A stretch of 64,000 nucleotides of DNA from NCBI GenBank assembly GCA_052168235.1, contig JBQLZK010000032.1:13145-77144 (forward strand), read 5' to 3'. Position 1 is the first letter of the stretch. Each line of letters starts with the position of its first letter. A program made the position numbers and the translations under genes. The notes under the pieces are model-generated. The model did not search any database, was not told where the DNA came from, and saw only the letters and a list, made by a program, of their open reading frames with translations. The DNA comes from Thainema sp. (lineage in GTDB: Bacteria; Cyanobacteriota; Cyanobacteriia; Phormidesmidales; Phormidesmidaceae). Shown in pieces: positions 2,210-61,271 of the stretch.

Positions 2210-2223
2210 GTATAGAAGATTAC
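2210..2223. promoter_or_regulatory. Candidate NtcA box upstream of amidase 1
   Basis: GTAtagaagatTAC (GTA-N8-TAC); no clean -10 at the canonical spacing. Confidence 0.3.
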
Positions 2224-2403
2224 TAGCAAGATTACTGATTAAAGATTTATCAAGGCTTCCTAACCTGCCTCACACTTTAGCTTACGCTTTAGTCACAAGT
2301 AATACAGTGAAATCACTGAATTTGCTCCTATAAATCTCTATAGGTTGTGTGTGCTGCGTGTACTGCGCTTTAACTCCCGTAATTACACGCAGAACTTCTT
2401 CTT

Positions 2404-2504
2404 ATATCAAGTCTGGTTAAAAAAACATCATTCATTTTTGTGAAACGCTTGCAGAGCAAGCGTTTCACAAAAATGAATTGGGTTCTTACACACAGACTTG
2501 ATAT
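2404..2504. repeat. Family A ~100-bp palindromic dispersed repeat (MITE-like)
   Basis: Ends ATATCAAGTCTG...CAGACTTGATAT with an internal hairpin TTTTGTGAAACG...CGTTTCACAAAA. Related copies at ~372, 14988, 24330, 26391, 28854, 46520, 48258, 49792, 50289 and 57355. Confidence 0.85.
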
Positions 2505-2536
2505 TAGTTTTCAATTACTTTGTAGGAGCGGACTCG

Positions 2537-4216
2537 GTGTTTAATCCTGTAAAATATGCCGCTGTTGCGGCGGCGGTCTCAGTAGTTTCACTTCCCAAAG
2601 CCTCTTTAGCGGCGACATTCAGTTTAATTGATGCTTCCGTTTCAGATATCAATCGCGCCTTTAACGCAGGTGCTCTGACCTCAGAAAGCCTAACTCAGCT
2701 CTATCTCAACCGGATTGACGCCTATGAAGGGCAGCTCAACAATTTCATCAGCATCAATCCCGATGCCTTAGAAACAGCCAAGCTACTGGATCTAGAGCGG
2801 CAAACCTCCGGGCCACGCAGTATCCTACACGGCATTCCCGTTGTCCTGAAAGATAATATTGACACCTTTGATCTGCCCACAACAGCCGGGTCAGTGGCTT
2901 TAGAAGGCTCGATTCCGCCAGATGATGCGTTCATCACGGCTAAGTTGCGCGATGCTGGAGCCATCATTCTGGGCAAAGCCAGTCTGACTGAATTTGCCAA
3001 CTTCCTTACGTCAGGTATGCCAGGCGGCTATAGCTCCCTCAATGGCTATACCTTTAACCCATACAATCCGTTTCCGCTTGAGGGCGGAGATGGTAGACCT
3101 GCGCTGTCGCCTGGCGGATCGAGTGCAGGATCGGGAGCTTTAATAGCCGCAAACTTGGCCCCGCTTTCGATTGGTACTGAAACCTCCGGATCGATCTTGA
3201 GTCCGGCCAACCAAAATTCGGTTGTTGGCATTAAGCCAACCGTCGGTCTGATTAGCCGCGACGGGATTATTCCAATCGCCGCCAGTCAAGATACGGCTGG
3301 CCCCTTCGGTAAGACGGTTGCTGATGCGGCAGCCCTATTGGGCTTCTTGACGGGAGTTGATCCCAGCGATCCGGCAACAGCAGCAAGCGAGGGCAAGTTT
3401 TTTACTGACTACACCCAATTTTTAGATAAAGATGCGCTAGCAGGCGCTCGGATTGGGGTGCCCCAGGCACAGTACTGGGAGGGTCTGGACGCCGATCAGA
3501 TCGCTATTGTCGAAGATGCGATCGCAACCATTCAGTCTCTCGGTGCAGAGATCATCTACGAAGATATTCCTAATCTGGAAGATGTCAATGCCCTCAGCTC
3601 TGACGTACTGTTTTACGAGTTCAAGCGTGACCTAAACGCCTATCTTGAAAGCCTGGGGCCAGATGCTCCGGTTAAGAGTTTAGCCGACGTAATCGCCTTC
3701 AATGAGGCCAATGCAGACGTGGCGCTGAAGTATGGTCAAACTCGTGCAGCCCTGGCTGAGGAAAATGATCTGTCCCCCTTCAGCGAAGACACACTGGCCT
3801 ACTTGGAAGCTCGGGCAGCAGATCTACGGGTTGCCAAAGAGGAAGGCATCGACACCTACATTGAAACATTTGACCTAGATGCAATTCTGTTTCCAGCCAC
3901 CCGAGGCGCAGGCATTGCCGCTAAAGCTGGCTACCCCAGCGTTTTGGTACCAGCTGGCTACTTAGAATCAGGCGCACCCTACGGTGTCACCTTCTCAGGA
4001 CTGGCGTTTAGCGAACCTGACCTGATTGGCTTTGCCTATGCCTACGAGCAAGCATCTCAAAAGCGAGTGGCACCGAGTCTATTTCCAGCCCTCGCCGGAG
4101 AAGAGTTTGAGTACAAGGCTGTGCCTGAACCTGGCACGCTGCCTGCTGTCGTTGCTCTGGGTGGTGCCCTGCTGGGATATCGGCTGATCAAGCGGCGGTC
4201 TACTGTTCAGGTCTAA
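2537..4216 (+). CDS. Secreted amidase-signature family amidase with PEP-CTERM tail (amidase 1)
   Basis: Signal-peptide-like N-terminus; PVVLKDN, GGSSAG and GTETSGS (Lys-cisSer-Ser triad); C-terminal VPEPG-hydrophobic-KRR. Likely GTG start at 2537 after AGGAG. Confidence 0.9.
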   Translation: MFNPVKYAAVAAAVSVVSLPKASLAATFSLIDASVSDINRAFNAGALTSESLTQLYLNRIDAYEGQLNNFISINPDALETAKLLDLERQTSGPRSILHGIPVVLKDNIDTFDLPTTAGSVALEGSIPPDDAFITAKLRDAGAIILGKASLTEFANFLTSGMPGGYSSLNGYTFNPYNPFPLEGGDGRPALSPGGSSAGSGALIAANLAPLSIGTETSGSILSPANQNSVVGIKPTVGLISRDGIIPIAASQDTAGPFGKTVADAAALLGFLTGVDPSDPATAASEGKFFTDYTQFLDKDALAGARIGVPQAQYWEGLDADQIAIVEDAIATIQSLGAEIIYEDIPNLEDVNALSSDVLFYEFKRDLNAYLESLGPDAPVKSLADVIAFNEANADVALKYGQTRAALAEENDLSPFSEDTLAYLEARAADLRVAKEEGIDTYIETFDLDAILFPATRGAGIAAKAGYPSVLVPAGYLESGAPYGVTFSGLAFSEPDLIGFAYAYEQASQKRVAPSLFPALAGEEFEYKAVPEPGTLPAVVALGGALLGYRLIKRRSTVQV

Positions 4217-4538
4217 CAGCTATTTGAGTGAAAGCCTTTGTCCAGTGAGTGTTTCGCGTAGTCGATGGCTTCGCCTAGAAAAAGGGGGGAATTGACTCAA
4301 AGTTCCCCCTTTTCAAGGGGGATTTAGCAGGGTGGTTTCATTTTGCCAAAATAAATTCTAGAGTCGCCATTTCACGTATCTGGTAGGGGCGAATGGCCAT
4401 TCGCCCTTACGCAACGTTTATGGTTCTAAATTATTCTCTGCCTAGGGGAATCTTAACGGTAAACGGAGTCTAGAGACTTGTGCATATATTGCTCCCACAG
4501 GAGAAGGGGAGCCGGATCGAAAGTCCCTCTCCTGCGGG

Positions 4539-4703
4539 CTACTGTTTATACATAAGTCTCCTAGACTTCGTTTCGGCGTTGAGATCCCCCCTAGCCCCCC
4601 TTAAAAAGGGGGGAACTGGCTCAAAGTTCCCCCTTTTTAAGGGGGATTTAGGGGGATCAGTCCGGGATTTAGAAGGACTATTTAGGATGTGTATAAGCAG
4701 TAG
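4539..4703. mobile_element. Family B 165-bp MITE inserted in a REP-like hairpin
   Basis: TIRs CTACTGTTTATACA...TGTATAAGCAGTAG; flanks CTCCTGCGGG / CTCCTACGGG resemble a TSD; four copies in the window. Confidence 0.85.
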
Positions 4704-4740
4704 CTCCTACGGGAGAGGGATTTAGGGTGAGGGCAAGCTA

Positions 4741-6498
4741 TTAAACGATTACTCGGTGTCTGCTTGCACAGCGGGAACGCCGTTTCAGGAGTCTGTATCC
4801 CAGTAAAGCGCCACCCATACTGACCAGAACCACTTCAAAACCGGGTTCTGAAACGGGTGTATACTCAAACTCTTCGCCTGCCAAAGCTGGCGTTAGGGTT
4901 GGAGCTTTACGGTACTTCGTTGCCTGCTCAAATGAGTAGGCCAATCCTAATAGAGTGGATTCACTGAACGGGCGGCCTGTGAGGGACAAGGTAACTGGCA
5001 AGCCCTGAGAGCCAAATCCGGCTGGAACAGTGACATCCGGCAGTCCAGTCGAACTAGCAAACAGCGCTTGCCGAGATGGCGGATTACCCGGCGGATCGAC
5101 AAAGGTTGGATCGCTAATTCCAATTGCCGGACGGGCAAAGGTATCGACTGTCGGGAAAAGAAACGCATCCAGATTGAGCGAATCGAGCCGACCAATCAAT
5201 GTGTCTCTGAGGAAGGGCGCAATCACTTCAGCCACTTCCTGATAATCGGCTACTTCTGATTCTCCCTCTTCAACCGAGGAGCTTAATGTGCCGATGATTC
5301 TAGAGGGCGTTGCAGAATTGGCAACTTCTGGAGACTCCAAAATGGCAATGATTTCTTCTAACGTCTTGGGATATTTAGGATCTAAGGTCGCCAAATATTC
5401 TTCCAGGTAGATCTCCTGCTCAACATCAATTGCAGTACCGTATACCCCGCTTAAGGTTGACAAGAAAGCGTCTTCAAATGACGTTTCAACAATCTCGGCT
5501 CCTAAGCCTTTCATCACCTGGATCGCGTTTTCTACCAGAGCGGTAACTTCTGGATCGACCCCGTTTTCTTCACCCAGATAGTTGGTGACTAAACCCAAGC
5601 GAGCCCCCTTCAACGCATCCTTATCGAGGAACTGGGTGTAGTCATCGTAAAACTTATCTAGCTCAATCGGTGGAGCCTCAATCGGCGTTTTGATGCCTGG
5701 GTTATTCGGATCAAACTCTGCCATTACACTCAGTGCGATCGCAGCATCTTCGACCGAGCGAGCCATCGGGCCGATCATGTCTCTAGACAACACGAACGGA
5801 ATAATGCCGTCCAAACTCAGCAGTCCCCGCGTTGGCCGGACACACACCAACCCTTGGAACGAACAGGGTGTTCGAATGGAACCACCTGTATCGCTACCTG
5901 TACCAAAGGTGGCAAAATTGGCTGCGATCGCAGCTCCTGTACCGCCGCTTGAACCACCGGACTGCCGCAGCAAATTGTATGGATTAAAGGTTTGCCCGCC
6001 AAGGGAACTGTAGCCTGAGCCAGAAATGGCAAATTCGTCCATCTCGGCTTTGCCAAAAATAATAGCTCCAGCATCGCGGAGTAAATCCACAACAAAGGCA
6101 TCATCTGGCGGAATCGAACCTACTAATGCATCTGAACCTCCCGTTGTTGGGATGTCAAAAGTGTCGTGATTGTCCTTGAACAGAATCGGAATGCCATGCA
6201 GTGGACTGCGAGGGCCGCTCGTTTGACGCTCCAAATCGAGGGCTTTAGCAATGTCTAAAACATTCGAATTCGTGGCAATAACCGAATTAATGGCTGGGCC
6301 AGTATCATCATAGGCGGCAATCCGATCCAGGTACAATCCCACCAATTTTTCTGATGTTAAAGCACCTGAGTTGAAGGCTTTATTGATATCGCGAATGGTG
6401 GCATCCTGCAAGCTAAACGTTGCTGCGATCGCAGATTCTGCTGTAACAATAGCCAGCGATGCACATGCCGCTGCAAAACTCGCAACAGTTTTGAACAT
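4741..6498 (-). CDS. Secreted amidase with degenerate PEP-CTERM (VSEPG) tail (amidase 2)
   Basis: PILFKDN, GGSSGG, GSDTGGSIR; signal-peptide-like N-terminus; VSEPG-hydrophobic-KRR C-terminus. Confidence 0.9.
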   Translation of the reverse strand: MFKTVASFAAACASLAIVTAESAIAATFSLQDATIRDINKAFNSGALTSEKLVGLYLDRIAAYDDTGPAINSVIATNSNVLDIAKALDLERQTSGPRSPLHGIPILFKDNHDTFDIPTTGGSDALVGSIPPDDAFVVDLLRDAGAIIFGKAEMDEFAISGSGYSSLGGQTFNPYNLLRQSGGSSGGTGAAIAANFATFGTGSDTGGSIRTPCSFQGLVCVRPTRGLLSLDGIIPFVLSRDMIGPMARSVEDAAIALSVMAEFDPNNPGIKTPIEAPPIELDKFYDDYTQFLDKDALKGARLGLVTNYLGEENGVDPEVTALVENAIQVMKGLGAEIVETSFEDAFLSTLSGVYGTAIDVEQEIYLEEYLATLDPKYPKTLEEIIAILESPEVANSATPSRIIGTLSSSVEEGESEVADYQEVAEVIAPFLRDTLIGRLDSLNLDAFLFPTVDTFARPAIGISDPTFVDPPGNPPSRQALFASSTGLPDVTVPAGFGSQGLPVTLSLTGRPFSESTLLGLAYSFEQATKYRKAPTLTPALAGEEFEYTPVSEPGFEVVLVSMGGALLGYRLLKRRSRCASRHRVIV

Positions 6499-7066
6499 AA
6501 TAGGAACTCTTCAGTGAATTGAACAACAGGGAGCAGCTTTTAAAGCAAAAGAAAACAGCAAACTTTTCGTATTTTTAAAAGCAATCAACCCACAATATTT
6601 TTCAGATTCAATTGTCTCAATAATTTCCGCAAAAAACCGTTCAAACTGAACAATAAAAATCGAGTCAGGGAGAGAATATTCGAAACTTTAATATGAGAAA
6701 TTTACTGCAAAAATAATTGTAAATATTGGATTTAGCACTACACCTATAAGGTAGATAACAGTGCTTTAAGGATTATGAAGCAATTAGCCTACAAGTCGTT
6801 TCACCTGTAGGAACACGGCAATGCCGTGTCCCTACAGCAAGAATTTCAACTGATTAAATTTGCGTTCCTAAGTATCGCTTTGTTTGTCAGATATGGCAAC
6901 GCAATTTTTTGAAATAAGAACAAGTTAACAGCACAAAACTGCAACTGCTTTTAAGGAAATTTATTTTAGTGGGTTGGATTGAATAACGCCAAACCCAATC
7001 CCAAACGAGTTCTTTTTTGTCAGCAAGCTAGATGGCAGGACTTCATCACTGGTAATAACTAAATAC

Positions 7067-8713
7067 CTAAACCTGGCTAGATTTTCTTCTGCTTACAACT
7101 AATGCTCCGCCGACAACCATTACTAAGGCCGCAGTTGCACCAGGCTCAGGAATTTTTTCACCTGGTAGTGGAGGGGTAGTGCTGGGTGGACGACGAAAGC
7201 CTGTACCTTGTTCAAAAGCGTATGTAAGCTTGAGCAACGTTGGCTCATCATAGGCTCTGCCCAAAAACTCTAAGCCAACGGGTAAGCCATCCTCTGTAAA
7301 ACCAGCCGGGACCGTAATTGCAGGAAAACCAGAGAATGGGCTCAAGCGATTACCCGCACCAGCCGCCAAGCCCTCGCCTAGAATATTCGGTGGGCTTGCC
7401 ACCGAGGGATAGATCAGCGCATCTAATCCCATCAGTGCCTCCAACAGAGAGGTTTGTGTGAGAAGGGGACGCTCAGTGATGATGCGAATATACTCTGGGT
7501 CATCTTCTGGTGCAGGCCGCTCATTCCGGGAGATATAGGATCCTTCAAAGTCTTCCAGATAGAGCCCACTGTCAATGATGTCTCCTAATGATTTGACTCC
7601 AGACGGTGGGGTAGGACGCTCCGCCAGATAGTTGTTCAGATCCCGCTTGAACTCGAAGGAACTGAGACTAGGGAACGACAGTATTTCGCTAAGGTTGGGA
7701 ATGGTAACGTCTTTCACCTCTGCGCCCAAGGCACTGAGGGCGTTGATCGCGTTGTTAATCACCGCTGTTGTCTTGGCACTCTCAGGATTTGAGTCGAGGC
7801 CGAATAAATCGCGCACGACGCCAATCTTGGCCCCCTGTAGCCCATTTAGATCGAGAAAGGTCGTATAGTCATCAGGAGTCTTACCGATACTGCCCGCAGT
7901 CGCTGGATCGTCTGGATCAAAGCCCACAGTTGCGTTGAGGGCTAAAGCTGCGTCCGTCACAGTGCGGGTCATGGGGCCACCCACATCTTGACTCAGCGCC
8001 AGAGGAATAATGCCGGAACGACTGGAGAGGCCAATGGTCGGACGAATACCAACTAGGCTGTTAAACGACGAAGGTACCCGAATTGAGCCACCCGTGTCAG
8101 TACCAAAGCCTAAAACACCAAAATTAGCTGCGATCGCAGCTCCCGTACCGCCACTAGAACCACCAGCATTCCGAATTGGGTCATAAGGATTGACCGTTGT
8201 CCCTCCCAGCGAGCTAGTGCTAGTAAACGAAAACGCAAATTCTGAAAGGTTGGCCTTGGCTAGAATGAGTGCCCCTGCTTCCCTCAGACCCGCCACCTGA
8301 AACGCATCTTCTCCGGTCAAAAAGCCTTCTAGGGCCAAAGCTCCGGCAGTTGTCGGCATATCGACCGTGTCATAGTTATCCTTCAGAATGACAGGGACAC
8401 AGTGGAGTGAGCCGACTGGCCCAGACGCTGCATAGGCAGCATCAAGTTCAGCCGCAATACCCAGTGCATTGGGGTTCGTCGCAATAATGGCATTAAGAGA
8501 TGGGCCTTGATCGTCGTAAGCCTCAATCCGGTTGAGATAGAGCTGGGTGATATCGGTACAGGTCACTGCCCCAGAACTCAGCCCCTGCTGAATGCTCTCA
8601 ACGGTTGCTTCGCTGAGGTCAAATTTCGCCGCCTTTGCCGCATCTACAGCACAAAACAAGACTGTAGCCGACAAAGTTGTGCAAAAAGCAGCCGTTTTAG
8701 CAAAATTAGTCAT
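7067..8713 (-). CDS. Secreted amidase with PEP-CTERM tail (amidase 3)
   Basis: PVILKDN, GGSSGG, GTDTGGSIR; IPEPG-hydrophobic-RRK; likely start ATG at 8713. Confidence 0.9.
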   Translation of the reverse strand: MTNFAKTAAFCTTLSATVLFCAVDAAKAAKFDLSEATVESIQQGLSSGAVTCTDITQLYLNRIEAYDDQGPSLNAIIATNPNALGIAAELDAAYAASGPVGSLHCVPVILKDNYDTVDMPTTAGALALEGFLTGEDAFQVAGLREAGALILAKANLSEFAFSFTSTSSLGGTTVNPYDPIRNAGGSSGGTGAAIAANFGVLGFGTDTGGSIRVPSSFNSLVGIRPTIGLSSRSGIIPLALSQDVGGPMTRTVTDAALALNATVGFDPDDPATAGSIGKTPDDYTTFLDLNGLQGAKIGVVRDLFGLDSNPESAKTTAVINNAINALSALGAEVKDVTIPNLSEILSFPSLSSFEFKRDLNNYLAERPTPPSGVKSLGDIIDSGLYLEDFEGSYISRNERPAPEDDPEYIRIITERPLLTQTSLLEALMGLDALIYPSVASPPNILGEGLAAGAGNRLSPFSGFPAITVPAGFTEDGLPVGLEFLGRAYDEPTLLKLTYAFEQGTGFRRPPSTTPPLPGEKIPEPGATAALVMVVGGALVVSRRKSSQV

Positions 8714-8991
8714 GGTAGATGAAGGGAACTCTGTAGTGAAATAACTCAGACAGCCAGCACATTGAGTGCTGCGCTCCCGAATATTACTGAGGCTTTCTGT
8801 GTCAAGTTTGTTTTTACTGATACAAGCTTCATCAACCCTTACAGATTCTTTGCAGAAAGATCGGTTTTTGTGAAGCTGCGATAAAGCCACGGCTAGATTA
8901 AGATTGCATCAAATTAGCATCACAATCCAAAACGTGATGCTGGTGACGAACAGCGACAGCAGCAAAATCACTCTGCTGCTTTTTTGAGCGA

Positions 8992-9005
8992 GTATGTGAA
9001 TCTAC
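8992..9005. promoter_or_regulatory. Candidate NtcA box upstream of amidase 3
   Basis: GTAtgtgaatcTAC. Confidence 0.3.
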
Positions 9006-9148
9006 GTACTCGATAGAAACAAATAGGTCGGATAGCCCTTCGAGCGTAGCTACGCTAGCGCCTTACACACGAGCAACACATACAATCAACCGTTTTGGCC
9101 TTGCTCTAAAACAGGAAAACCTCTGCTTGATAAAGCAATCGGACAGAA

Positions 9149-9529
9149 TCAGTTAAATAGCGTGTGTCTGATGCAGCGACCGATAGCTTTGCCATAGCGG
9201 CTGTCTTCTACTTCAAATGCCAGGTTATCAGCCAAAGCCGTCACCTTCAGATCCTGTCCCTCTCCAGTCTGCCCTAGCCACAGGCGCTCAGAGCTATCCT
9301 CTTCTTCACGACTAACGGTTACGATTTCAATGAGTGCCTCATAGCCAGATCCCCGATAAATCTGGACACTAAATGTCGAGGCCATAACATCTAATTCGTC
9401 TACTTGATAAGACCGCAGCTCACCCGCTGCTTCACACTGCCAAACAATCGTTTCGTCAAACGTCATGGGAGTTCCAGCAACAACTAGAGAACTGAGCAAT
9501 CCGAGCCAGAGAGAAATGAGCAGCATCAA
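9149..9529 (-). CDS. Hypothetical secreted protein
   Basis: 126-aa ORF with a hydrophobic N-terminus and AAGGA upstream. Confidence 0.6.
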   Translation of the reverse strand: MMLLISLWLGLLSSLVVAGTPMTFDETIVWQCEAAGELRSYQVDELDVMASTFSVQIYRGSGYEALIEIVTVSREEEDSSERLWLGQTGEGQDLKVTALADNLAFEVEDSRYGKAIGRCIRHTLFN

Positions 9530-9761
9530 TTTCGTCCTTATTTATATATTTATATCGGTAGCAGGAAGCCAATTTGATCAGAAACCATTAGTTTGGGAGG
9601 GTTGTTTTTGGATATAAGTCGCCTTCGTTGTGACCAGATGTGTTGTGACCAGATGCGATCGCATGTCAGCAGATTGTCATTGGATTGGCCATTTGAGCTA
9701 GCATAATGCCACCAGCAACAGCGCTCTTGAACCGAAACAAAGCTGCTTAGGAGAAATAATA

Positions 9762-13172
<3,411 letters not shown>

Positions 13173-13350
13173 ATCAGCTTATCGGCAGCGGCTTGCCCTC
13201 ACCCTAAGTCCCTCTCTCGCTGGGAGAGGGACTTTTGATCTAGCTTCGCTGCTAACTTGCGCTAGATTTTCTAACGCTAGAGAAGTGGAAAAGGCGTTAC
13301 TTAATCTCGGTATGGGCTGTGATGTGGGAGCGCTGATCCCTCAACAAGAG

Positions 13351-13433
13351 GAACTTTGAGCTAGTGGTGGCATAGCCCCTTTTTCAAGGGGGCGGCGACA
13401 GCGGGGGATCGTACAACTACGCCAAACACATAC
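13351..13433. mobile_element. Partial family C MITE inside another hairpin repeat
   Basis: Reverse complement of the left half of the 46881-47045 element, flanked by inverted arms TGTGATGTGGG / CCCACATCACA. Confidence 0.6.
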
Positions 13434-13754
13434 GCTGCCCCACATCACAATTCATACTTAAGATCAGCAATCCCGACCGAGGAAAACGCTTGGTTTAGCT
13501 ATCGTTTACCCATTCATCATCTCAACTAAGGCAGACCTATATAAGTTTTAGATTCCAACCCGATACAGAGGCAAATCGTAGATGGTCACGAAACCATAGA
13601 GGAATGGAATGTATTTGATAAAAACCTGAATCGGGGTACAGAATTGGTTTTCGCGCAACGCCCGCGCTGCGGGCGTTGCGCGAAAATAGTTGAAATTTAC
13701 TACCAAATTCCGTATGACCGACTAGGGTTGCAGTAAACGAGAGGTTTCTAAATT

Positions 13755-14633
13755 ATGGCTGGTCGGCTAGAAGGTAAAGTTGCCATCATCACGGGTGCCG
13801 CAACGGGGATTGGCGAGGCGATCGCACATAAATTTGCGATGGAAGGAGCAAAAGTTGTCATCAATGGATTGCCGGATGATCCCGTCGATGATGTTGTCAC
13901 CGCAATGCAAAAACATGGTGCAGATGCGATCGCACATAAGGGCGATATTTCCCAAGTGGCAGAAGCGCAAGCTTGTGTACACATGGCAGTTCAGCAGTTT
14001 GGGAAACTGGATATTCTGGTTAACAATGCGGGTGTATTCTTGGTAGCCGCAGAAACGCAGGACTATCCAGTTGAGCTGTTCGACCGGACGCTGCAAATGA
14101 ATCTGCGATCGGCCTTTTTGATGACTAAGTGTGCCCTGCCCCATCTGCAAAAGACGCGTGGCTGCATTGTTTCAGCAGGTTCGGAAGCCGGTTTTAATGG
14201 ATTAGCGCAAAACACGACCTATGGCGGCACCAAAGGCTGGATGCATTCATTTATGAAGGGTGTAGCCGTGGAGCAGGCCAAATACGGCGTTCGTGCTAAC
14301 TGCGTCTGTCCTGGAGCGATTGATACTGCTTGGACGCATAAGGAAACCGGGCCGATGGATCAGCAAATGGAGAAAATGCTGATTCAAGCTACGCCAATGG
14401 GACGGCGCGGTACACCCGAGGAAATGGCCAACGTCTATGCTTTCCTGGCGTCGGATGAAGCCAGCTATGTAACGGGTTCGCTCTGGCTCGCGGACGGCGG
14501 CGTTACCGTTGCCAAAGGTTCTGTGGGTAGCCAGGTACCTGATGAGCTGAAGCAGGAACCACAGGGTTCACTGTCCGATTTGAAACATAGTCGCGATGGT
14601 TTAGAAGGAAAGCAGGTGAAGACACTGAAATAG
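13755..14633 (+). CDS. Short-chain dehydrogenase/reductase
   Basis: TGAATGIG, NNAG and YGGTK motifs. Confidence 0.93.
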   Translation: MAGRLEGKVAIITGAATGIGEAIAHKFAMEGAKVVINGLPDDPVDDVVTAMQKHGADAIAHKGDISQVAEAQACVHMAVQQFGKLDILVNNAGVFLVAAETQDYPVELFDRTLQMNLRSAFLMTKCALPHLQKTRGCIVSAGSEAGFNGLAQNTTYGGTKGWMHSFMKGVAVEQAKYGVRANCVCPGAIDTAWTHKETGPMDQQMEKMLIQATPMGRRGTPEEMANVYAFLASDEASYVTGSLWLADGGVTVAKGSVGSQVPDELKQEPQGSLSDLKHSRDGLEGKQVKTLK

Positions 14634-14826
14634 TCGATGCCTAAGAGACTATTTTGCCGCCGCGATGCGGCGGCAAAATAATCCTCCTGGGTTTTGGCAA
14701 GATGTGAGTAAGTACGGTTATGTGGAGCGCTCTGCGTCCACATAACCGTTTTTGTACTGAATGGGGTCAAACCGCTATAAATCAATTTGTGAGTTTTATT
14801 ACTGTTTTATTACATAGAGGGCAATA

Positions 14827-14842
14827 TGTATTGATCAATACA
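14827..14842. promoter_or_regulatory. Candidate NtcA box upstream of the FGE-CobW-nitrile hydratase genes
   Basis: Perfect 16-bp palindrome TGTATTGATCAATACA (TGTA-N8-TACA). Confidence 0.55.
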
Positions 14843-15116
14843 ATCGTTGTCAGAGTCTTCCTATTTACTACCGAAACAAGGTGAAGGCCAAATATCACTA
14901 GATAAACCAGTTTTGCTGTGGCTGAAGCTGGCAGATTGTTTTGTTCCTCTTTCTCTAAAAAACGTTTGGCTAACACCCGTTGAGCTAATACGAAATCCGC
15001 TCACAAAAACCAGTTTTTATTTTTTGTGAAAGTTAGACACAGCCCGACTTTCGCAGAACATAGTTCAGGTTCTTGCTAGTCGGATTCGGTACAAGAGTGC
15101 GTGAGGTGATGCATCA

Positions 15117-16076
15117 ATGAAGCGGCGAAGGTTCTTTCAGTATGCGGGTTTAGGTAGTATTGGCTTTCTGCTAGCAAGCCGCGATCGCGCTTTCGGCTCA
15201 TCTCTGACTCAAGCCGAGTATCAGCCCGATTTGAGTTTAAGAACCTTTCGGTTTGATGTGGCCACAGTTGATAAAGCGGGACGGATTAAGCAGCGTTCGA
15301 CCCATACGGCTCAATTCTTCTCAGCTCCTATTGGTCAGACTGAATCTTCTGAATTTATCGATATGGTAGCGATTGCTCCCGGTCAGTTCTGGATGGGCGC
15401 ATCTAAAACTGAAGCTGATGCTAAAGGCCATGAATTTCCTCGGCATCGGGTCAATTTATCACCCTTTTTGATCAGTAAGTATCCGATTACCCAAGCCCAA
15501 TGGACAGCCGTAGCAGCACTGCCCAAAGTCCAGCGTGAGCTTGATCCTGTGCCTTCCTACTTCCAAGGTGATCACTATCCCGTTGAAAGCGTGTCTTGGC
15601 TAGATGCGATGGAATTTTGCGATCGCATCAGTCAGTATACGGGTCGTCGCTATCAGTTGCCCAGTGAAGCCCAGTGGGAATATGCCTGTCGGTCTGGGAC
15701 GCGAACGCCGTTTAACACCGGGGAAACGATTACTAGCGAACTCGCTAATTATGTCGGAGCCTATACCTACCGAGCGGAACAGAAGGCCAGCTATCCGCAA
15801 TCGACCTTACCCGTGGGACAATACTCGCCGAATGCCTTTGGTCTTTACGATATGCACGGCAACGTTTGGGAATGGTGTGCTGACACCTGGCACGCCAACT
15901 ATCGAGGCGCACCGAGAGATGGAACAGCCTGGGTAAGCGCTAAACCCTCCCAACTGCGGACGATTCGGGGTGGTGGCTGGCTCGATGCCCCTGCAACAAT
16001 TCGATCTGCCAGTCGTTCTGGTTATCTAGAAACGGCGCTGAATCGAACGATTGGGTTCCGAGTGGTTACAGTTTAG
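15117..16076 (+). CDS. FGE-sulfatase (SUMF1/EgtB/PvdO) domain protein with twin-arginine-like N-terminus
   Basis: LPSEAQWEYACR, NAFGLYDMHGNVWEWC, RGGGW, GFRV; N-terminus MKRRRFFQ. Confidence 0.9.
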   Translation: MKRRRFFQYAGLGSIGFLLASRDRAFGSSLTQAEYQPDLSLRTFRFDVATVDKAGRIKQRSTHTAQFFSAPIGQTESSEFIDMVAIAPGQFWMGASKTEADAKGHEFPRHRVNLSPFLISKYPITQAQWTAVAALPKVQRELDPVPSYFQGDHYPVESVSWLDAMEFCDRISQYTGRRYQLPSEAQWEYACRSGTRTPFNTGETITSELANYVGAYTYRAEQKASYPQSTLPVGQYSPNAFGLYDMHGNVWEWCADTWHANYRGAPRDGTAWVSAKPSQLRTIRGGGWLDAPATIRSASRSGYLETALNRTIGFRVVTV

Positions 16077-16209
16077 GATTTCTCTCATCCTCACCCTCAT
16101 CCACAATAGAGCAAACAAAATATTTTCATCTAGCTCTCCTCTCCCGTGGGAGAGGGGTCGGAGGTGAGGGCTTCCCACAACAGTTACGTAAGCAGAGAGC
16201 AGGAAACGA

Positions 16210-17193
16210 ATGACATTAGTGCAGAAAGTTCCCGTTACGGTCTTGACCGGCTATTTAGGAGCAGGGAAAACCACCTTGCTCAATCGCATTTTGACCGAAG
16301 AGCACAATCAGCGAATTGCCGTGATTGTCAACGAGTTTGGCGAAGTCGGCATCGACCATCAGCTAGTGGTCAATGCCGATGAAGAAATTTTTGAGATGAA
16401 TAACGGCTGCATTTGCTGCACCGTGCGCGGCGACCTGATCCGCATCATTGGCGAGCTGATGTCGCGCCGCGATCGCTTTGATCATCTGGTGATTGAAACA
16501 ACGGGACTGGCCGATCCGGCTCCCGTCATCCAGTCCTTCTTTGTCGATGAAATCATGCTGCGGCAGACCCAGCTCGATGCCGTGGTCACTGTGATTGACG
16601 CCAAGCATATCTGGGAGCACTGGGACAGCAGCGAAGCCCAGGAGCAGATTGCCTTTGCCGATGTCATCTTGCTCAACAAAACCGATCTCGTTTCTGCTGA
16701 GCAGCTACATGCACTAGAGACGAAGGTGCGGGGCATCAATGCGATCGCAAAAATCCACTCTACCCAAAACTGCGAAATCGATCTCAACGCTTTATTGGGC
16801 GTACAAGCGTTTGACCTGAAGAATGCGCTGAGCATCGATCCGGAGTTTCTGGAGGAAGACGCCCATGAGCATGATGAGACGGTATTCTCGGTGGCGATTA
16901 CTGAAATGGGCACGGTTGATGGCGACAAGCTCAATCGCTGGCTCTATCAGCTGATACAGGAGCGGGGGCCAGACATTTTCCGCATGAAGGGCATTTTGGA
17001 CATGGACAACGCCGATCGCCGCTTCGTCTTTCAAGGCGTTCACATGACCCTTGATGGCCGCCCCGGCAAGCCCTGGCGACCAGGAGAGACGCGCCGCAAT
17101 GAGCTGATCTTCATTGGCCGCAATCTCGACGAAGCCGCACTCCGGGCTGGCTTCCAAAGCTGCCTAGCCAAAGCCTATGCCCATTCTTCTTAA
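16210..17193 (+). CDS. COG0523/CobW (G3E) GTPase metallochaperone
   Basis: [30 protein letters not shown]; CobW_C with short EDAHEHD. Confidence 0.95.
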
Positions 17194-17241
17194 TTGACAT
17201 CCTAATGAACAACCACTTTCTGAAGTCCTTCTTCCTCTGGA

Positions 17242-17406
17242 CTGCTGTTTATACATAAGTTTCCTAGACTTCGTTTCAACATTGAGATCCCCCCTAGCCC
17301 CCCTTAAAAAGGGGGGGATTGGCTCAAAGTTCCCCCTTTTTAAGGGGGATTTAGGGGGATCAGTCCGGGATTTAAAGGGATTATTCAGGATGTGTATGAG
17401 CAGTAA
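17242..17406. mobile_element. Family B MITE between the CobW gene and nthB
   Basis: Near-identical to 4539-4703, with slightly degenerate TIRs. Confidence 0.8.
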
Positions 17407-17473
17407 GGAGTTTAGGGTGAGGGCAAACGTTCTGTTTACCGCAGTTAGTACCATTTGAACTAGAGACAGACCT

Positions 17474-18220
17474 ATGAAACTACAGCATAATCTGGGTGGA
17501 TTAGAAGGGCTTGATCCGATCAATCCCGAACCACAGGTTTTCGTTGAACCCTGGGAAAAGCGCATTTTCGGCATCCACACGGCGATGATGGCGCTCAGTA
17601 ACCATCTGGGCGAATCCTTACCGGGCTATACGATTGAGGCTGTACCCACCAACTTCAAAAGCTTTTGGACATGGGGCCATCTGCGGATGGGTGCTGAGGG
17701 CATGCATCCCTTTGAATATTTCCGGTTGCGCTACTACGAAAAGTGGCTCGGCGGTATCTCCGGCTTTTTTGTGGAAGAGGGCTATATCACGCAGGAAGAG
17801 CTAGATACCCGCACCGCTGAATTTCTGGAAGATAGCGAGAAGGCGGCTGCACCTTTACCCAGTGGTGGCGATCCGGCCATTGATGCTCAGGTGCTGAAAT
17901 ACCTGCGGGAAGGAGATTCCCCGATGCGGGATTTACCTGCACCACCTTTGTTTAGCGTTGGCGATCAAGTGCGGGTGAAAAACGTAGCTCCAGGGGCGCA
18001 TAGTCGATTGCCCGGTCATTTGCGAGGACGTGTAGCCACGGTCGTTCTGGTTTATGACAACGCTTTCACCTACTTCTTTCCCACAGAAGACGGCATCGGC
18101 GTACCCATGCCCGTTTACAGCCTGGCGTTTAAGCCGGAAGATATTTGGGACGCGTCACTGATTGATGCTAACTCAGTGTATTACAACGACATTTTTGAAG
18201 TGTATTTAGAAGCGGTGTAG
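17474..18220 (+). CDS. nthB: Nitrile hydratase beta subunit
   Basis: HNLGG, FVEPWEKRIFG, YYEKWL, FSVGDQVRV, HSRLPGHLRG, EVYLE. Confidence 0.88.
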   Translation: MKLQHNLGGLEGLDPINPEPQVFVEPWEKRIFGIHTAMMALSNHLGESLPGYTIEAVPTNFKSFWTWGHLRMGAEGMHPFEYFRLRYYEKWLGGISGFFVEEGYITQEELDTRTAEFLEDSEKAAAPLPSGGDPAIDAQVLKYLREGDSPMRDLPAPPLFSVGDQVRVKNVAPGAHSRLPGHLRGRVATVVLVYDNAFTYFFPTEDGIGVPMPVYSLAFKPEDIWDASLIDANSVYYNDIFEVYLEAV

Positions 18221-18229
18221 GGAGAGAGT

Positions 18230-18853
18230 ATGCCTAGCAACTATCCAGGATTTAAGTACAGTGCCGATCGGGAGACGTTTAGCGCCGCCAAGGTCAAAGC
18301 CCTAGAGTCTCTTTTAATCGAAAAGGGCATCATCACGGGCGATACGGTAGACAACATTCTCGGCTACTTTGAAACCGAGATGGGGCCGTTCAATGGGGCC
18401 AAACTGGTGGCTCGGGCCTGGGTTGATCCAGAGTTCAAAGCGCGACTGCTAGCTGACTGTAACGCGGCCTGTGCCGAAATGGATTTTCCTGAAGGCATGT
18501 CGGGTGCAGAAGGTGAGCACATGCGGATCGTGGAAAATACACCCGAGGTACATAACGTGATTGTCTGTACCCTTTGCTCCTGCTATCCCTGGCCGACGCT
18601 GGGTTTGCCGCCCTATTGGTTCAAAGATCCCACCTTTCGGGCACGGGTGGTTCGCGAACCGCGAGTAGTGCTATCGGAGTTTGGCGTCGATTTAGATGAA
18701 TCGGTTGAGGTACGAGTTTGGGACAGTAGCGCTCAGATTCGCTGGTGGGTGCTGCCGATGCGTCCCGCTGGCACAGAAGGCATGGGCGAAGCGGAATTGG
18801 CGGCCTTACTAACCCCAGAAGCAATGATGGGCGTCGCCACTGTCAAGGCTTAG
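18230..18853 (+). CDS. nthA: Nitrile hydratase alpha subunit, cobalt-type motif
   Basis: VCTLCSCYPWPTLGLPP metal site; VARAWVDPEFK; VRVWDSS. Confidence 0.95.
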   Translation: MPSNYPGFKYSADRETFSAAKVKALESLLIEKGIITGDTVDNILGYFETEMGPFNGAKLVARAWVDPEFKARLLADCNAACAEMDFPEGMSGAEGEHMRIVENTPEVHNVIVCTLCSCYPWPTLGLPPYWFKDPTFRARVVREPRVVLSEFGVDLDESVEVRVWDSSAQIRWWVLPMRPAGTEGMGEAELAALLTPEAMMGVATVKA

Positions 18854-19131
18854 TTCTGTGGGGGCCAATGGTGTGCGCGTTTAGCATGGCCGTATGATCC
18901 CCCGCTGTCGCCGCCCCCTTAAAAAAGGGGCTATGCCAACTCTGGCTCAAAGTTTCCCTTTTTTAGGTAAAGCCATGCCCGAAGGGCTATAGGGGGATTC
19001 AAGGGGAATCAAATTTGTAGGTTGGGTTGAGCTTGCGAAACCCAACAGATACACATCATAGCGGTGATTGAAGAAAGTGGATAGTCCCCAGCCAAGAGCT
19101 GAAATTCTGATTATGGGCAGGTTTGAAGCGC

Positions 19132-19494
19132 ATGTTTACTAAGTTTGAACACTTTGCCGCCACTAGTTTAATGGGGTCGCCGGAAGAGGCTCCGCCGCGC
19201 AAAGATGGCCATTTACACTTTGACCGCGATTGGGAAAAGATGGCCTTTGGAGTTGCGATCGCGCTTTCCAAGCAGGGCTACTTTGAATGGGAGGATTTTC
19301 GCCAAACGTTAATCAGCACCATTCATGAATGGGAATCAACTCATAAGCTGGACGATCCGGAGTGGGATTACTATCAGTGCTGGCTGGCGGCCCTTGAAAA
19401 GCTGGTGGTTGAATCCGGCGTGCTCAAAGCCGGAGAACTGGAAGCTCAACTGGCTCAGTTACTGGACTGTAAAGGTAACACCCTGCAAGCATGA
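19132..19494 (+). CDS. Nitrile hydratase accessory/activator protein (P14K/NhlE-like)
   Basis: PPRKDGHLHFDRDWEKMAFG, FEWEDFRQ, YYQCWLAALEKL. Confidence 0.88.
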   Translation: MFTKFEHFAATSLMGSPEEAPPRKDGHLHFDRDWEKMAFGVAIALSKQGYFEWEDFRQTLISTIHEWESTHKLDDPEWDYYQCWLAALEKLVVESGVLKAGELEAQLAQLLDCKGNTLQA

Positions 19495-19495
19495 G

Positions 19496-22400
19496 CTACA
19501 ATAAGCTCCGCAGATCTGGAGCAAGATTGGCAACCATTGGGGAACTGGTAGGACGATTATTCAGAGTCAATCGTAAGACAAATGTAGTTTGCCCATCGCC
19601 ACTTTCGACGTGAATAGCGCCGCCCAGCCGTTCGGTCAGCTTCTTGACCAGAGCCAATCCCAACCCGGTACCGCCATGTCTCCAGGGATCGTTATTGGGG
19701 ATTCGGTAAAATTTATCAAAAATGCGATCGCGCTCTACTGGTGCAATTTCAGTGCCTGAATTACTAACGCGCAGCTCCAGCCCATCGGTCATCGCTTGGG
19801 CCGATATTGTGATAATGCCTCCGGCTGGTGTGTATTTGCAGGCATTGTTCAGCAATTCGCTGAGGATGCGCTCTAGGTAAGGCAAATCAGTCGTGATTGC
19901 TGGCAGGTCAGCCGGAATTTGAAACACGAGGTGCTGCTGCTGACGCTGTATCCGTTCACTAAATACCTCAGCCAGATGGGGAATATAGAACTGGAGATCA
20001 ATAGTCGTCAAGCTCAAAGCTTCCACTCCGGCATCCAATCGAGCCAAGTCAAGCAGATCGTTAATCAGATTAATTTCTCGTTCCTCTTCTTCGTGCAGTA
20101 CTTTAACATAGCGATTAATCGAGGAGGATTCACTCGGCAGCACCCCCAGATGGTTTAAGCTAATCTCCAGCATTTGCGTCGCCATCTTGATATTGGACAT
20201 GGGCGTGCGTAGCTCATGGGATACCGTACTCAAGAAGTCATCTTTTAGCTGATTCAACCGCTCTAGTTCCTTAACCTGAGCCTGCGCTGCCTGGTAGAGA
20301 CGGGACTGGCGTAGTGCGATCGCACATTGGCTGGCAACCTGCTGCACCAGCCGAATTTCTGGTTCAGTAAACACCTCCTGAGACGGTCGGAACAGCCACA
20401 GATCGCCCAAGGTTTCCTGATCGTCACAGATTGGTACGGCCAGCATCGTTAAATGCTGCTGGTTTTGCCGCAGAAAATTCGGCACAGCATCACAGAACTG
20501 ACAGACTTGCCCGCTGAGTAGCCCGTCGTATACGGCGGCATAGGGAGCATTGGTAATCTCAAATGTTTGGCCTTGGGCGGGAGCAAGCGTTGTGATCGAT
20601 TCGTGGGCAATGGTTGATGTGGTGTGGTCAACATTGTACATACCAGCATCGCAACCCGCTAACGCTAGCTTATGCACCAATTCCTCCACAGCCGCTTGCA
20701 GGATCAGTCGCTCATTTAAGCTGTCGCGCACCCGTTCGGTAATGCGCCTAAGTAACGCTTCAAAGTCCAGAGCCTGCTGTAGCTCATTGGTTCGCTGCTG
20801 TACCTGTATTTCCAACCCAGTGTTGAGCGACTGCACCTGTTGATACAGTTCAGACTGCTGAATTGCGATCGCAATTTGAGTGGCCAACTGCTGCTGCAGG
20901 TCAATTTCCCAGTCCTGCCAGTTACGCGGCGCACGACAGTGCTGAGTCACTAACAGTCCCCAAAGATGGTTATTTTGCAGGATGGGGACGACTAGCTTGG
21001 CTTTCACCTGCATGCGTTCCAGCAACTCTAAATGACACGGATCCAGATCAGCGGTTTGCACATTCGACGTAGCTTTAATAAAGCCCTGCCCATAGGACTG
21101 TCCTGCCATTTTGACAAAATAGGTGTCGGTAATTTGCATGCCCAAAACGGATGACCAACCCGCTGCCACCGATTCGGCAATCACAACGCCGCTCCAGTCG
21201 GGATTAAAGCGATAGATCAGCACCCGATCCGTTTGTAAGCAGTTGCGGATCTCGGTCACAGTGGTATTGAGAATTTGATCTAAATCCAGCGTTTGGCGGA
21301 TGTGCTGGGCGATGTCAGACAGCAACCGTTCACGCTCAATTTGCTGACAGAGAGCGGTTTGCGTTTCTTTCAACAGGGTAATGTCCACCGCCACCCCAGA
21401 ATACTGGCAGGGTGTACCATCAGGAGCACGCTTGAAAATGCGATCGCGACTTAATAGCCAGCGGTAACTGCCGTCTTTATGCCGCAATCGATATTCAACT
21501 TCGATATATTCTTCATCGTTTAAGTGCAGCAACTGCTGACGATTGGCCAGGACTTCGGTTCGATCATCCGGATGGAGCAAATTGGGCAGAAATGCTTGAC
21601 CCATCCCCTGAATTTCGGCGACAGAATAGCCCAATACGGTTTCGATTTGAGGATTACAGTAGATATTGCGCTGTTCAACTAAATCGTAAACATACAGGAT
21701 AGCCAGCGTAGACTCAGCAATTTGCTCTGTAAACTGCTGTTGCTCACGCAGAGCTAGCTCAAAGGAGCGGTTTTCCAACTCAGCCAGCTTGAGGGCAGTT
21801 AGGTCGTGCAGGTTGATCACGACGCCCGAAATGTGGCCATCTAGCTCAATATAGGGAACCAGAGAACAGCGAACAAACCGCCGCTGACCATCGTCATAGT
21901 CTCGCCAGTCTTCAAATCCTTGAGTCATGTCACCGGCCAATGCGCGATCGCACATTGAGCGACAAAACGGTTCAAACCGATTGTATCCAATCAGTTCCGT
22001 CAGCGAGTGACCAATGATGTCAGCCTGGGAGCGTTGATACCAGTTCAAGTAGGCTTGATTCACCACCTGATAGGTATAGTTCCGATCCACTAATGCGATC
22101 GCATCCGGAGTCGCCGACACAATGCGCTCATACCGACGCAGCAACGCTTCCGATCGCTGTCTTTCCAATTCAGAAGCGGCTCGCACCGAAAAAATTGTCA
22201 AAACTTCTTCGATAAACTGCACATCTGTAATCGGCTGATCGTGATGGACACAGATCAAGCCCAGTACAGATCCGGCTGAATCAACTAAGGAAATACCCAC
22301 GTAGCCTTCGATGCCATGTTCGTCTAGATAGTGATCGTCTGGAAAACACTGCTGCACCTTGTCACAGAACAGGCAAAATCCCTGCTGCACAACTTGCTCA

Positions 22401-33397: not shown

Positions 33398-33549
33398 GGC
33401 AGTTGGGGAGGTAAGGAGCAAAGAGTAAAGCGTGAGGCGTGAGGCGCTAAATCTGGACGTAGGGGCGAAGCATTTGGGTTAGAAGTTATAAATATGACTC
33501 AAAGGCCGTTGACCAAATGCTTCGCCCTCCTTCGCCCTACCGATGAAAT

Positions 33550-59928: not shown

Positions 59929-60271
59929 AAATCACCATCTTTGCGTTGGTTCTAAAGAATAAGAACGAGTCTGCACCCTTGCTCAAACAACCCTAAGCTC
60001 GACCTTATCTTTAAGAACATTGTCTTAGATCAAATAACTGAATCTTTTCAATGTGCTCAAGATAACGAGGGTTCAAAGACAGAAAAAGCGATCGCTGGCA
60101 TAGTTTATCCGTACCTTTACAGAGAAGCTCAGATCCTGTACGGCAGAGCAGAGCCTATAATTGTTTAAAGTCAAGCACAGCCAGAATTTCTCTCTGGTCA
60201 GAAATTTTACAAAATTCAGTATTAAATTGCTAGTTGCAGAACCGTAGAAACACAGTCTCTTCACAAAAGCC

Positions 60272-61180: not shown

Positions 61181-61271
61181 TACTCTTTATATATAAGTCT
61201 GATTACGCATTCCAGAGCTGATTTTCCAGAGCCCAGTTCAAAACTGGCTTAATATCAACCACCAGATCTCA

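Follow-up and report, generated by a model that had tools for sequence, protein, structure and literature searches.

The stretch of DNA analysed here, hereafter the window, comprises 64,000 nucleotides (nt) from the cyanobacterium Thainema sp. (GenBank assembly GCA_052168235.1, contig JBQLZK010000032.1, positions 13,145 to 77,144 of the forward strand). Our subject is a five-gene operon on its plus strand (14827-19494), which encodes an FGE-like protein, a COG0523 GTPase, the beta and alpha subunits of a nitrile hydratase (NHase), and an NHase accessory protein. The operon shares a 17-kb stretch with three genes for secreted amidases, and an initial annotation had joined these parts, together with the nearby nif cluster, into one NtcA-linked system converting nitriles to amides and then to ammonium. 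Every gene and GTA-N8-TAC box on which that proposal drew is present. No amidase lies within or beside the NHase operon, next to which the annotation had likewise seen no cytoplasmic amidase. However, we consider it probable that separate units have come to lie side by side here by chance, namely an NtcA-controlled NHase operon with an FGE-like escort and an independent amidase cluster. The elements of the operon are as follows.

14827-14842, plus strand: box 3, TGTATTGATCAATACA, the putative NtcA-type promoter box of the NHase operon; a perfect TGTA-N8-TACA palindrome with its GTAN8TAC core at 14828
14862-14869, plus strand: -10-like element TATTTACT, in which TTTACT occupies 14864-14869, 22 nt past the TAC of the box
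15117-16076, plus strand: FGE-fold, PvdO-like protein (PF03781) with the N-terminus MKRRRFFQY
16210-17193, plus strand: COG0523 (CobW-family) GTPase with a GCICC motif (PF02492 and PF07683)
17474-18220, plus strand: NHase beta subunit (TIGR03888, 200 bits against a cut-off of 152.2)
18230-18853, plus strand: NHase alpha subunit with VCTLCSCY (TIGR01323, 297.3 bits against a cut-off of 249.85)
19123-19494, plus strand: beta-like, NhlE-type NHase accessory protein (TIGR03889, 82.7 bits against a cut-off of 46)

The alpha, beta and accessory proteins all score above the curated equivalog cut-offs of these models. Within the alpha subunit, the sequence VCTLCSCYPW includes the cobalt-type motif CTLCSCY, and the solved chains closest to this subunit are cobalt NHases. 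The available portion of one source gives the rule that CTLCSCY marks cobalt enzymes and CSLCSCT marks iron enzymes (PMC2770081). By its motif the enzyme is therefore of the cobalt type, and it is predicted to bind cobalt and to hydrate nitriles. The adjacent GTPase carries the P-loop GYLGAGKT and, in GCICC, the CXCC motif, and its nearest solved structure is YjiA (1nij, 2e-59). We retained 80 loci from 132 relatives of the alpha subunit, mainly from Leptolyngbya-like cyanobacteria but also from Acaryochloris marina, Raphidiopsis brookii and some gammaproteobacteria, and a COG0523 gene lies beside the NHase genes in nearly all of them.

This combination of genes is unusual. As far as the accessible text of the two sources goes, iron-type NHase is the only kind with which the COG0523 activator Nha3 clusters (PMC2770081), and cobalt NHase shows no need of a COG0523 chaperone (PMC11672702). 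The operon thus resembles iron-type systems with Nha3 in placing a GTPase with a CXCC motif beside the NHase subunits, and differs from them in that the partner enzyme carries the cobalt motif and a beta-like accessory protein is also present. A self-subunit-swapping accessory of the NhlE type is familiar from the cobalt NHase of Rhodococcus rhodochrous J1. The equivalog models, the CTLCSCY motif and the closest solved chains (Pseudonocardia thermophila 1ire and Bacillus 2dpp) align the operon with such cobalt systems, from which it differs by adding a COG0523 GTPase, a signal-bearing FGE-fold protein and an NtcA-type promoter, and by having neither an adjacent amidase nor a NiCoT cobalt transporter. 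Because a cobalt motif, a COG0523 gene and a beta-like accessory occur together, this clade of NHases appears to combine the maturation kits of the iron and cobalt types.

The same operon is found in Granulosicoccus (L059-L061) and other gammaproteobacteria (L070, L072, L073 and L075), where the alpha subunits are 72-82% identical and where loci L070, L072, L073 and L075 also contain the FGE-like gene. This distribution points to transfer between phyla. Other genes that recur near NHase elsewhere include HupE/UreJ (34 loci), parts of an NMT1-type ABC transporter (16-34), an AsnC regulator (22), a second NHase (7), cynS for cyanase (6) and urease alpha (3), and the commonest hydrolase neighbour is an isochorismatase-family protein (19 loci). 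The neighbourhood of NHase in other genomes is one of organic nitrogen and cobalt or nickel. A second, divergent NHase is seen on the opposite strand in approximately 20 loci (for example L002, 1353-3005), with an alpha subunit that is 52-59% identical and a beta subunit that is split or short, and it adjoins the isochorismatase-family hydrolase and the NMT1-type ABC transporter. In the source genome, cynABD-like genes, cynS, hupE and a DUF1348 gene, which flank NHase elsewhere, reside on contig C59 (L174) and are unlinked to the NHase operon.

Promoters of the glnA type that are activated by NtcA consist of a GTA-N8-TAC box followed, approximately 22 nt downstream, by a -10 element TAN3T. The region of box 3 resembles these promoters in its box, in its spacing and in its place upstream of a nitrogen-assimilation operon. 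Moreover, the source genome encodes ntcA (385.2 bits against a cut-off of 244.95), and its glnA gene and one amt gene have boxes of the same kind. The region differs from the glnA type in its -10 sequence, which is TTTACT/TATTTA, and in its unconserved leader, which would be about 240 nt long if transcription starts near 14876.

We asked how often such an arrangement recurs among the 68 loci, the window included, in which the first operon gene is preceded by at least 500 bp of sequence, counting a box score of at least 12/14 followed by a -10-like hexamer at 19-24 nt. The arrangement occurs in 23 of the 68 loci, compared to 3.0 on average, and never more than 8, in 200 shuffles. Although the spacers inside the box vary among loci, TGTA/TACA and the downstream ATTTACT are retained. 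When 19 upstream regions were aligned, the GT and AC of the box proved invariant (19/19), as did the A of TTTACT, whereas outside the box and the ATTTACT block the same regions are 29% identical and range in length from 138 to 363 nt. Because only the box and the -10 block are conserved, the pattern looks like the trace of a protein-binding site together with a -10 element and leaves no room for a conserved leader RNA. A riboswitch or other RNA in the long leader was considered and rejected, as Rfam matches with E <= 1 over positions 1-26000 are exclusively chance matches of the microRNA type and the leader is unconserved.

Three observations weigh against nitrogen control. First, 45 of the 68 loci fail the criterion, including most of a more distant cyanobacterial clade. 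Second, the 68 loci share kinship, and the contrast with shuffled sequences therefore overstates their independence. Third, the -10 element of box 3, while conserved, is not a strict TAN3T. Even so, the conservation of the box together with its downstream element at 23 loci, where shuffles yield 3.0, means that NtcA-type nitrogen control of the NHase operon is well supported by sequence comparison, and we infer that NtcA binds box 3 and that the operon is induced when nitrogen is short. A nitrogen-regulated cyanobacterial NHase is already in print for one species. In Arthrospira sp. PCC 8005, nthA1/nthB2 mRNA rises by about 2.1-2.3 log units under nitrogen limitation and the protein rises as well (PMC4509649); that NHase may belong to a different operon type.

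Perhaps the box at 14827-14842 is instead recognised by a different regulator, for example a metal sensor such as Zur or one for cobalt, and the operon answers to metal supply rather than to nitrogen. The perfect palindromy of box 3 and its departure from the canonical TAN3T partner of NtcA would fit such a sensor, and Zur often regulates COG0523 genes, according to the accessible portion of PMC2770081. We nevertheless find this explanation very improbable. An invariant GT-N10-AC within TGTA-N8-TACA, followed after 22-23 nt by a -10-like block, is the architecture of an NtcA promoter, and a box of this kind precedes glnA in the source genome. In addition, all seven gammaproteobacterial or Polyangiales loci keep the COG0523 gene and none of them (0/7) has the box 3 arrangement, and the Arthrospira NHase, as far as its report is available (PMC4509649), responds to nitrogen limitation. 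Nitrogen control through NtcA consequently remains our reading of this promoter.

The first gene of the operon codes for a protein of the FGE fold. Its nearest solved structure is PvdO (5hha, 5e-40), and it scores 166.9 bits against a PvdO equivalog model whose cut-off is 500, from which we conclude that it is not a PvdO. It is like PvdO, a periplasmic protein of pyoverdine maturation, in being extracytoplasmic, if judged by its putative signal, and in missing the catalytic cysteines of FGE, and is unlike PvdO in being linked to NHase and not to pyoverdine genes. The copper-binding cysteine pair that FGE has near its C-terminus is absent, with no cysteine in ...RGGGWLDAPATIRSASRSGY... of the window protein or in those C-terminal tails of homologues that were inspected. 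An FGE domain occurs in 178 of 301 evenly drawn cyanobacterial genomes. Across the 301, each of the 20 best full-length matches to the FGE-like protein (52-71% identity) has an NHase alpha gene no more than a few kb away, and one more full-length match (G201) lies on a contig other than that of the distant NHase alpha of its genome. A protein with a related FGE domain (54% identical over the domain, in a frame of 421 amino acids) is encoded at L081 10391-11104 (G261:C89), beside the closest orthologue of amidase 2, and NHase was not found in genome G261.

Two kinds of evidence bear on the role of the FGE-like protein. The first is a predicted complex of the mature FGE-like protein with alpha and beta, which scored 0.89 (0.90, 0.88 and 0.89 in separate runs) whereas the three controls all scored 0.00. 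At least 94% of contacts are shared between runs, and the partner has a pLDDT of at least 91. Residues 286-291 and 301-312 of the FGE-like protein, which are its most conserved, are predicted to contact an N-terminal helix of alpha (11-20) and a helix of beta (106-122). Of 157 solved complexes, 116 attained the mark used to judge such scores, as did 2 of 215 mismatched pairs, a calibration that is approximate here, because our prediction used its own alignments and three chains. No solved entry among the matches listed for the FGE-like protein or for NHase alpha is such a complex. We also considered whether the FGE-like protein might be an oxidase of the active-site cysteines, and set this role aside since the protein is without the cysteine pair and its predicted contacts are away from CTLCSC (alpha 113-118).

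The second kind of evidence is the N-terminus. All 38 homologues in NHase loci open with M-[KR]-R-R-x-[FL] and continue into a hydrophobic stretch, and the N-termini of NHase alpha and beta show no twin-arginine pattern. Judged by eye, the N-terminus of the FGE-like protein is Tat-like (twin-arginine). Folded partners of a signal-bearing subunit can cross the membrane through the Tat pathway as 'hitch-hikers', as is the case for hydrogenase-2 HybOC and for DmsAB. Like these systems, the present one would have a twin-arginine N-terminus on a single subunit and a cofactor enzyme matured in the cytoplasm as its partner, and the model suggests hitch-hiking export of NHase by the FGE-like protein. 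The established cases differ in that, for NHase, no example was found in the literature searched and the arrangement is here predicted from genes and a model. The most likely role of the FGE-like protein is thus to bind alpha and beta, as predicted, and to escort the folded enzyme through the Tat pathway.

Four points speak against this role. The Pfam TAT_signal model was passed by none of six N-termini at its cut-off of 22.7 bits, with the window protein unmatched and two gammaproteobacterial homologues below threshold at 18.1 and 21.0 bits. The complex score is a statement of model confidence rather than a measurement. All 39 loci that have the FGE-like gene show F or Y at residue 17 of alpha, a predicted contact, and this residue is aromatic in only 3 of 31 loci that lack the gene, yet a correction for the tree leaves four independent contrasts, of which two are concordant, none is discordant and two are equal (sign test p 0.5). 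Finally, to our knowledge all characterised NHases are cytoplasmic.

Most of these points also favour a different explanation, in which the FGE-like protein acts on its own in the periplasm, for example by binding or processing a substrate or metal, while NHase remains cytoplasmic and the predicted complex is spurious, of the kind that 2 of the 215 mismatched pairs produced in a calibration made without user alignments or three chains. We regard this explanation as rather unlikely. It would have to accommodate the difference between 0.89 and 0.00 in three controls with consistent contacts, the fact that these contacts fall on the most conserved residues of the FGE-like protein and on an alpha residue that tracks the presence of the gene, and the strict linkage of the 20 best full-length matches to NHase alpha.

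It would also have to accommodate a clean exclusivity with another gene. A DUF1097 membrane protein is encoded in 28 of the 31 loci without the FGE-like gene and in none of the 39 loci with it. Among the 301 genomes, 20 have a full-length FGE-like gene beside NHase alpha and 15 have DUF1097, with no overlap; 14 of the 16 DUF1097 genes adjoin NHase alpha, and genomes of the FGE type contain none of them. Taking the escort role as our preferred reading, we propose, tentatively and with somewhat less than even confidence, that this NHase clade is a three-component enzyme under NtcA control. A cysteine-less FGE-fold subunit would grip alpha and beta through its former peptide groove and export the cobalt-loaded enzyme to the periplasm or thylakoid lumen, and DUF1097 would be the alternative by which sister operons join enzyme and external nitrile.

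The remaining features of the region, to which the amidases belong, are as follows.

554-2047, minus strand: malQ, assigned from the listing of open reading frames (ORFs) and family scans
2210-2223: box 1, GTATAGAAGATTAC (GTAN8TAC), 327 nt upstream of amidase 1 and 163 nt upstream of malQ
about 2537-4216, plus strand: Pam-like amidase 1, secreted, with a PEP-CTERM tail (PF01425, TIGR02595), outside the NHase unit
4741-6498, minus strand: Pam-like amidase 2, secreted, with a tail SEPG...KRR and no TIGR02595 match
7067-8713, minus strand: Pam-like amidase 3, secreted, with a PEP-CTERM tail; the start at 8713 was picked from the signal-like N-terminus
8809-8824, minus strand: alternative imperfect box TGTATCAGTAAAAACA, a candidate about 60 nt upstream of the start of amidase 3
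8992-9005: box 2, GTATGTGAATCTAC (GTAN8TAC), 279 nt upstream of amidase 3
9149-9529, minus strand: small exported ORF of 126 amino acids, without a family, adjoining amidase 3
9762-13172, plus strand: treS-maltokinase fusion (treS-mak)
13755-14633, plus strand: SDR dehydrogenase, followed by two terminator-like hairpins
19496-23587, minus strand: large PAS/GAF histidine kinase, with a methyltransferase and a CBS-CP12 protein next
26028 (fdxN) to 43214 (nifB), minus strand throughout: nif cluster, starting about 6.5 kb after 19494

The amidases share a PF01425 domain with visible KDN and GGSS motifs, and all three have signal-like N-termini and PEP-CTERM-like tails. By the TIGR02595 model (cut-off 16), amidase 1 scores 16.6 bits and amidase 3 scores 19.8 bits, and amidase 2, which has SEPG in place of PEP, is unmatched. 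Their closest solved relatives are structures of the peptide amidase Pam (5ac3 and 1m21, E approximately 1e-100, over the full length), compared to 1e-25 for the Rhodococcus-type 3a1i. They are like Pam of Stenotrophomonas maltophilia (1m21/1m22, 5ac3) in this full-length similarity and in being exported amidase-signature enzymes, and unlike it in that the cyanobacterial copies add a PEP-CTERM tail and form tandem arrays. The tail is present in 34 of 58 cyanobacterial copies by a strict pattern that undercounts, and in 1 of 77 copies from outside the cyanobacteria, and appears to be a cyanobacterial addition to Pam-like amidases. The source genome has 13 PF01425 matches, including at least five paralogues of the exported Pam-like type on three contigs, and the five closest orthologues of amidase 2 (81-63% identity) are in genomes in which NHase was not found and stand in tandem arrays of up to seven. 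The amidases are probably members of a multi-copy family of the Pam branch that act independently of NHase and free ammonia from amides outside the cell, most probably from peptide amides.

PEP-CTERM proteins are exoproteins from which both ends are removed, according to the available text of PMC10957091, and the genome encodes an exosortase. This enzyme, a cyanoexosortase C (60272-61180, 342.8 bits against a cut-off of 225), is part of a sorting module at 59167-61862 that also contains a 'cistern' PEP-CTERM protein and an HpsJ-like protein and that lies 40 kb from the PEP-CTERM amidases. Homologues of the exported ORF of 126 amino acids (36-37% identity) are encoded beside orthologues of amidase 3 at L084 1942-2238 and L106 11618-11908, and the ORF is a possible partner of amidase 3. 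In the orthologues of amidase 1 from Hyella, Waterburya, Leptolyngbya FACHB-36 and Phormidium tenue (L098-L101), a shared C-terminal domain, TITDFEIGKDVIGI..., replaces the PEP-CTERM tail.

The initial annotation had ascribed all three boxes to NtcA while cautioning that boxes of 6 bp arise by chance. That caution holds for the window as a whole, where GTAN8TAC occurs at 8 sites against 6.16 expected; as many as 8 turn up in 30 of 100 shuffles, so that the window shows no overall excess. Across the genome there are 743 such sites, at a density 2.2x as great between genes as within them, and one is present in 7.4% of the intergenic gaps that measure 150 bp or more. Within the span in question the site is found in 3 of 9 gaps (binomial p = 0.024, for a span chosen after the fact). 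Even the perfect TGTA-N8-TACA 16-mer has 65 copies in the 7.54 Mb genome, box 3 among them. The sequence by itself leaves the boxes within chance, and the comparison across genomes clearly lifts only box 3.

The assignment of boxes 1 and 2 to NtcA has not fared as well as that of box 3, and we rate both as weak candidates. A TAN3T element at 18-25 nt is absent after box 1 in either direction and after box 2. Downstream of box 1, a GATTTAT lies at an offset matching the ATTTAC of box 3, but this was noticed post hoc and deserves little weight. For amidase 3, the imperfect box at 8809-8824, with TAATAT (8781-8786) 22 nt further on, is better placed than box 2. Between box 1 and amidase 1, at 2431-2477, lies a palindrome with a 20-bp stem; we rejected it as an attenuator of amidase 1, as its arm has 17 copies in the genome, which makes it a palindromic repeat of the dispersed kind. 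Just ahead of box 2, at 8958-8987 on the plus strand, stands a hairpin resembling a terminator and bearing a T-run, GCAGCAG...CTGCTGCTTTTTT, where no plus-strand gene ends. A scan with consensus promoters and terminators was uninformative, with counts equal to those of shuffles. Against a strict separation of the two units, the arrangement of a box and a -10 element precedes 9 of 56 cyanobacterial amidase genes, compared to 2.0 +/- 1.4 in shuffles. These nine include 5 of 13 orthologues of amidase 1 that have an NtcA-type site. Nitrogen control of some members of the amidase family is therefore possible, and for the amidases of the window it is not established.

If the NHase and the three exported amidases formed one NtcA-controlled route from nitrile to amide to ammonium beside nif, as first proposed, then the association should recur elsewhere. 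We surveyed 80 relatives of amidase 1 with 8 kb around each, and the NHase loci to a distance of 10 kb. Neither NHase nor COG0523/CobW nor FGE-like genes were found within 8 kb in any of the 80 amidase loci. An amidase homologue lies within 10 kb in 3 of the 80 NHase loci, and two of the three are at most 31% identical; the third (L044) is 50% identical and has a signal peptide, is without a PEP-CTERM tail, and lies beyond five unrelated genes. None of the 80 NHase loci, 44 of which have at least 8 kb of downstream sequence, contains nif genes, the kinase or anything else that follows the operon in the window, and the neighbourhood with nif is not conserved.

The distribution over whole genomes gives a similar answer. 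Among the 301 genomes, NHase alpha is present in 41, a relative of amidase 2 (E <= 1e-70) in 35, and both in 10. This raw co-occurrence exceeds the 4.8 genomes expected (p = 0.015, uncorrected for kinship) and is a point in favour of a single system. However, 7 of the 10 genomes belong to the family of the window itself, and Fisher tests give p values of 0.23 inside that family and 0.72 outside it. The check across cyanobacterial genomes that had been suggested for the original proposal thus goes against it, since co-occurrence beyond kinship is absent.

We find a single route improbable overall. In its favour, all of the parts lie within 17 kb, each amidase has an upstream box, NtcA-type arrangements precede some amidase genes of the family as noted above, and an exported NHase could share a compartment with the amidases. 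Arrayed against it, beyond the unlinked loci, are the separation of the units by treS-mak and the SDR gene (the nearest amidase is 6.4 kb from the first gene of the operon and on the opposite strand), the genomes without a detected NHase that hold the closest amidase orthologues, and the resemblance of the amidases to peptide amidase rather than to amidases linked to NHase. The two-step chemistry put forward by the initial annotation is that of the NHase-amidase clusters of Rhodococcus and Pseudomonas, and the present operon differs from these in having no amidase in or beside it, the nearby ones being secreted, Pam-like and unlinked to NHase. The same annotation had warned that the enzymes are in different compartments. 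The amidases are indeed exported, and the NHase itself may, by prediction, be exported too, yet such amidases (E <= 1e-70) occur in only 4 of the 20 genomes that have an FGE-type operon. It is possible that the neighbouring amidases hydrolyse the amide made by NHase in this one genome, for which proximity is the sole support. A cytoplasmic amidase as the partner was also considered and set aside; several are encoded in the genome, two of them on contig C83, and no specific tie to NHase was found. That contig (L173) carries an island for N-heterocycle catabolism with a hydantoinase, two TRZ/ATZ-family hydrolases, PuuE, the two cytoplasmic amidases and ABC transporters.

Two further features of the window deserve mention. 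A fusion of nifE and nifN is encoded as a single frame of 942 amino acids at 30593-33421 on the minus strand (NF011047, 1385 bits). In addition, genes for alpha-glucan metabolism are interleaved with nitrogen genes around the nif cluster, namely malQ (554-2047), treS-maltokinase (9762-13172) and glgA (55574-57049).

Returning to separate units as the probable arrangement, we envisage the following course of events. Nitrogen shortage would lead NtcA to switch on the NHase operon, and cytoplasmic maturation of the enzyme, with the loading of cobalt, would fall to the COG0523 GTPase and the accessory protein. The FGE-like protein would clamp the N-terminal helix of alpha and the helix of beta in a groove that in true FGEs binds peptides and, provided that its N-terminus serves as a Tat signal, would carry the folded alpha/beta enzyme across the membrane. 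NHase would hydrate nitriles to amides as the first step of organic-nitrogen salvage, and a separate enzyme encoded outside the operon would hydrolyse the amides. In operons of the DUF1097 type the enzyme would be kept inside, and DUF1097 may import the substrate. The amidase cluster with its small exported ORF (2537-9529) would be sorted by the exosortase and would release ammonia extracellularly, independently of NHase.

In the literature searched, supplements aside and mostly by title, we did not find a conserved NtcA-type promoter of NHase, a COG0523 gene paired with an NHase that has the cobalt motif, or a signal-bearing FGE-fold partner of NHase with DUF1097 as its alternative. NHases are industrial enzymes whose maturation and natural role are poorly understood. 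The clade described here is widespread in cyanobacteria and common to some marine gammaproteobacteria, and it appears to unite maturation systems that were thought to be specific for iron or for cobalt. The operon adds a conserved, signal-bearing partner of a fold previously unlinked to NHase, and its analysis removes a tempting but unsupported pathway annotation that would join the NHase to the neighbouring amidases. If export is correct, this would be the first exported NHase and a new, non-catalytic use of the FGE fold, and nitrile hydration would take place outside the cytoplasm, which would shift the search for substrates and for the fate of the amide. Finally, the conserved nitrogen-starvation promoter argues that nitriles may be a real nitrogen source for these phototrophs.

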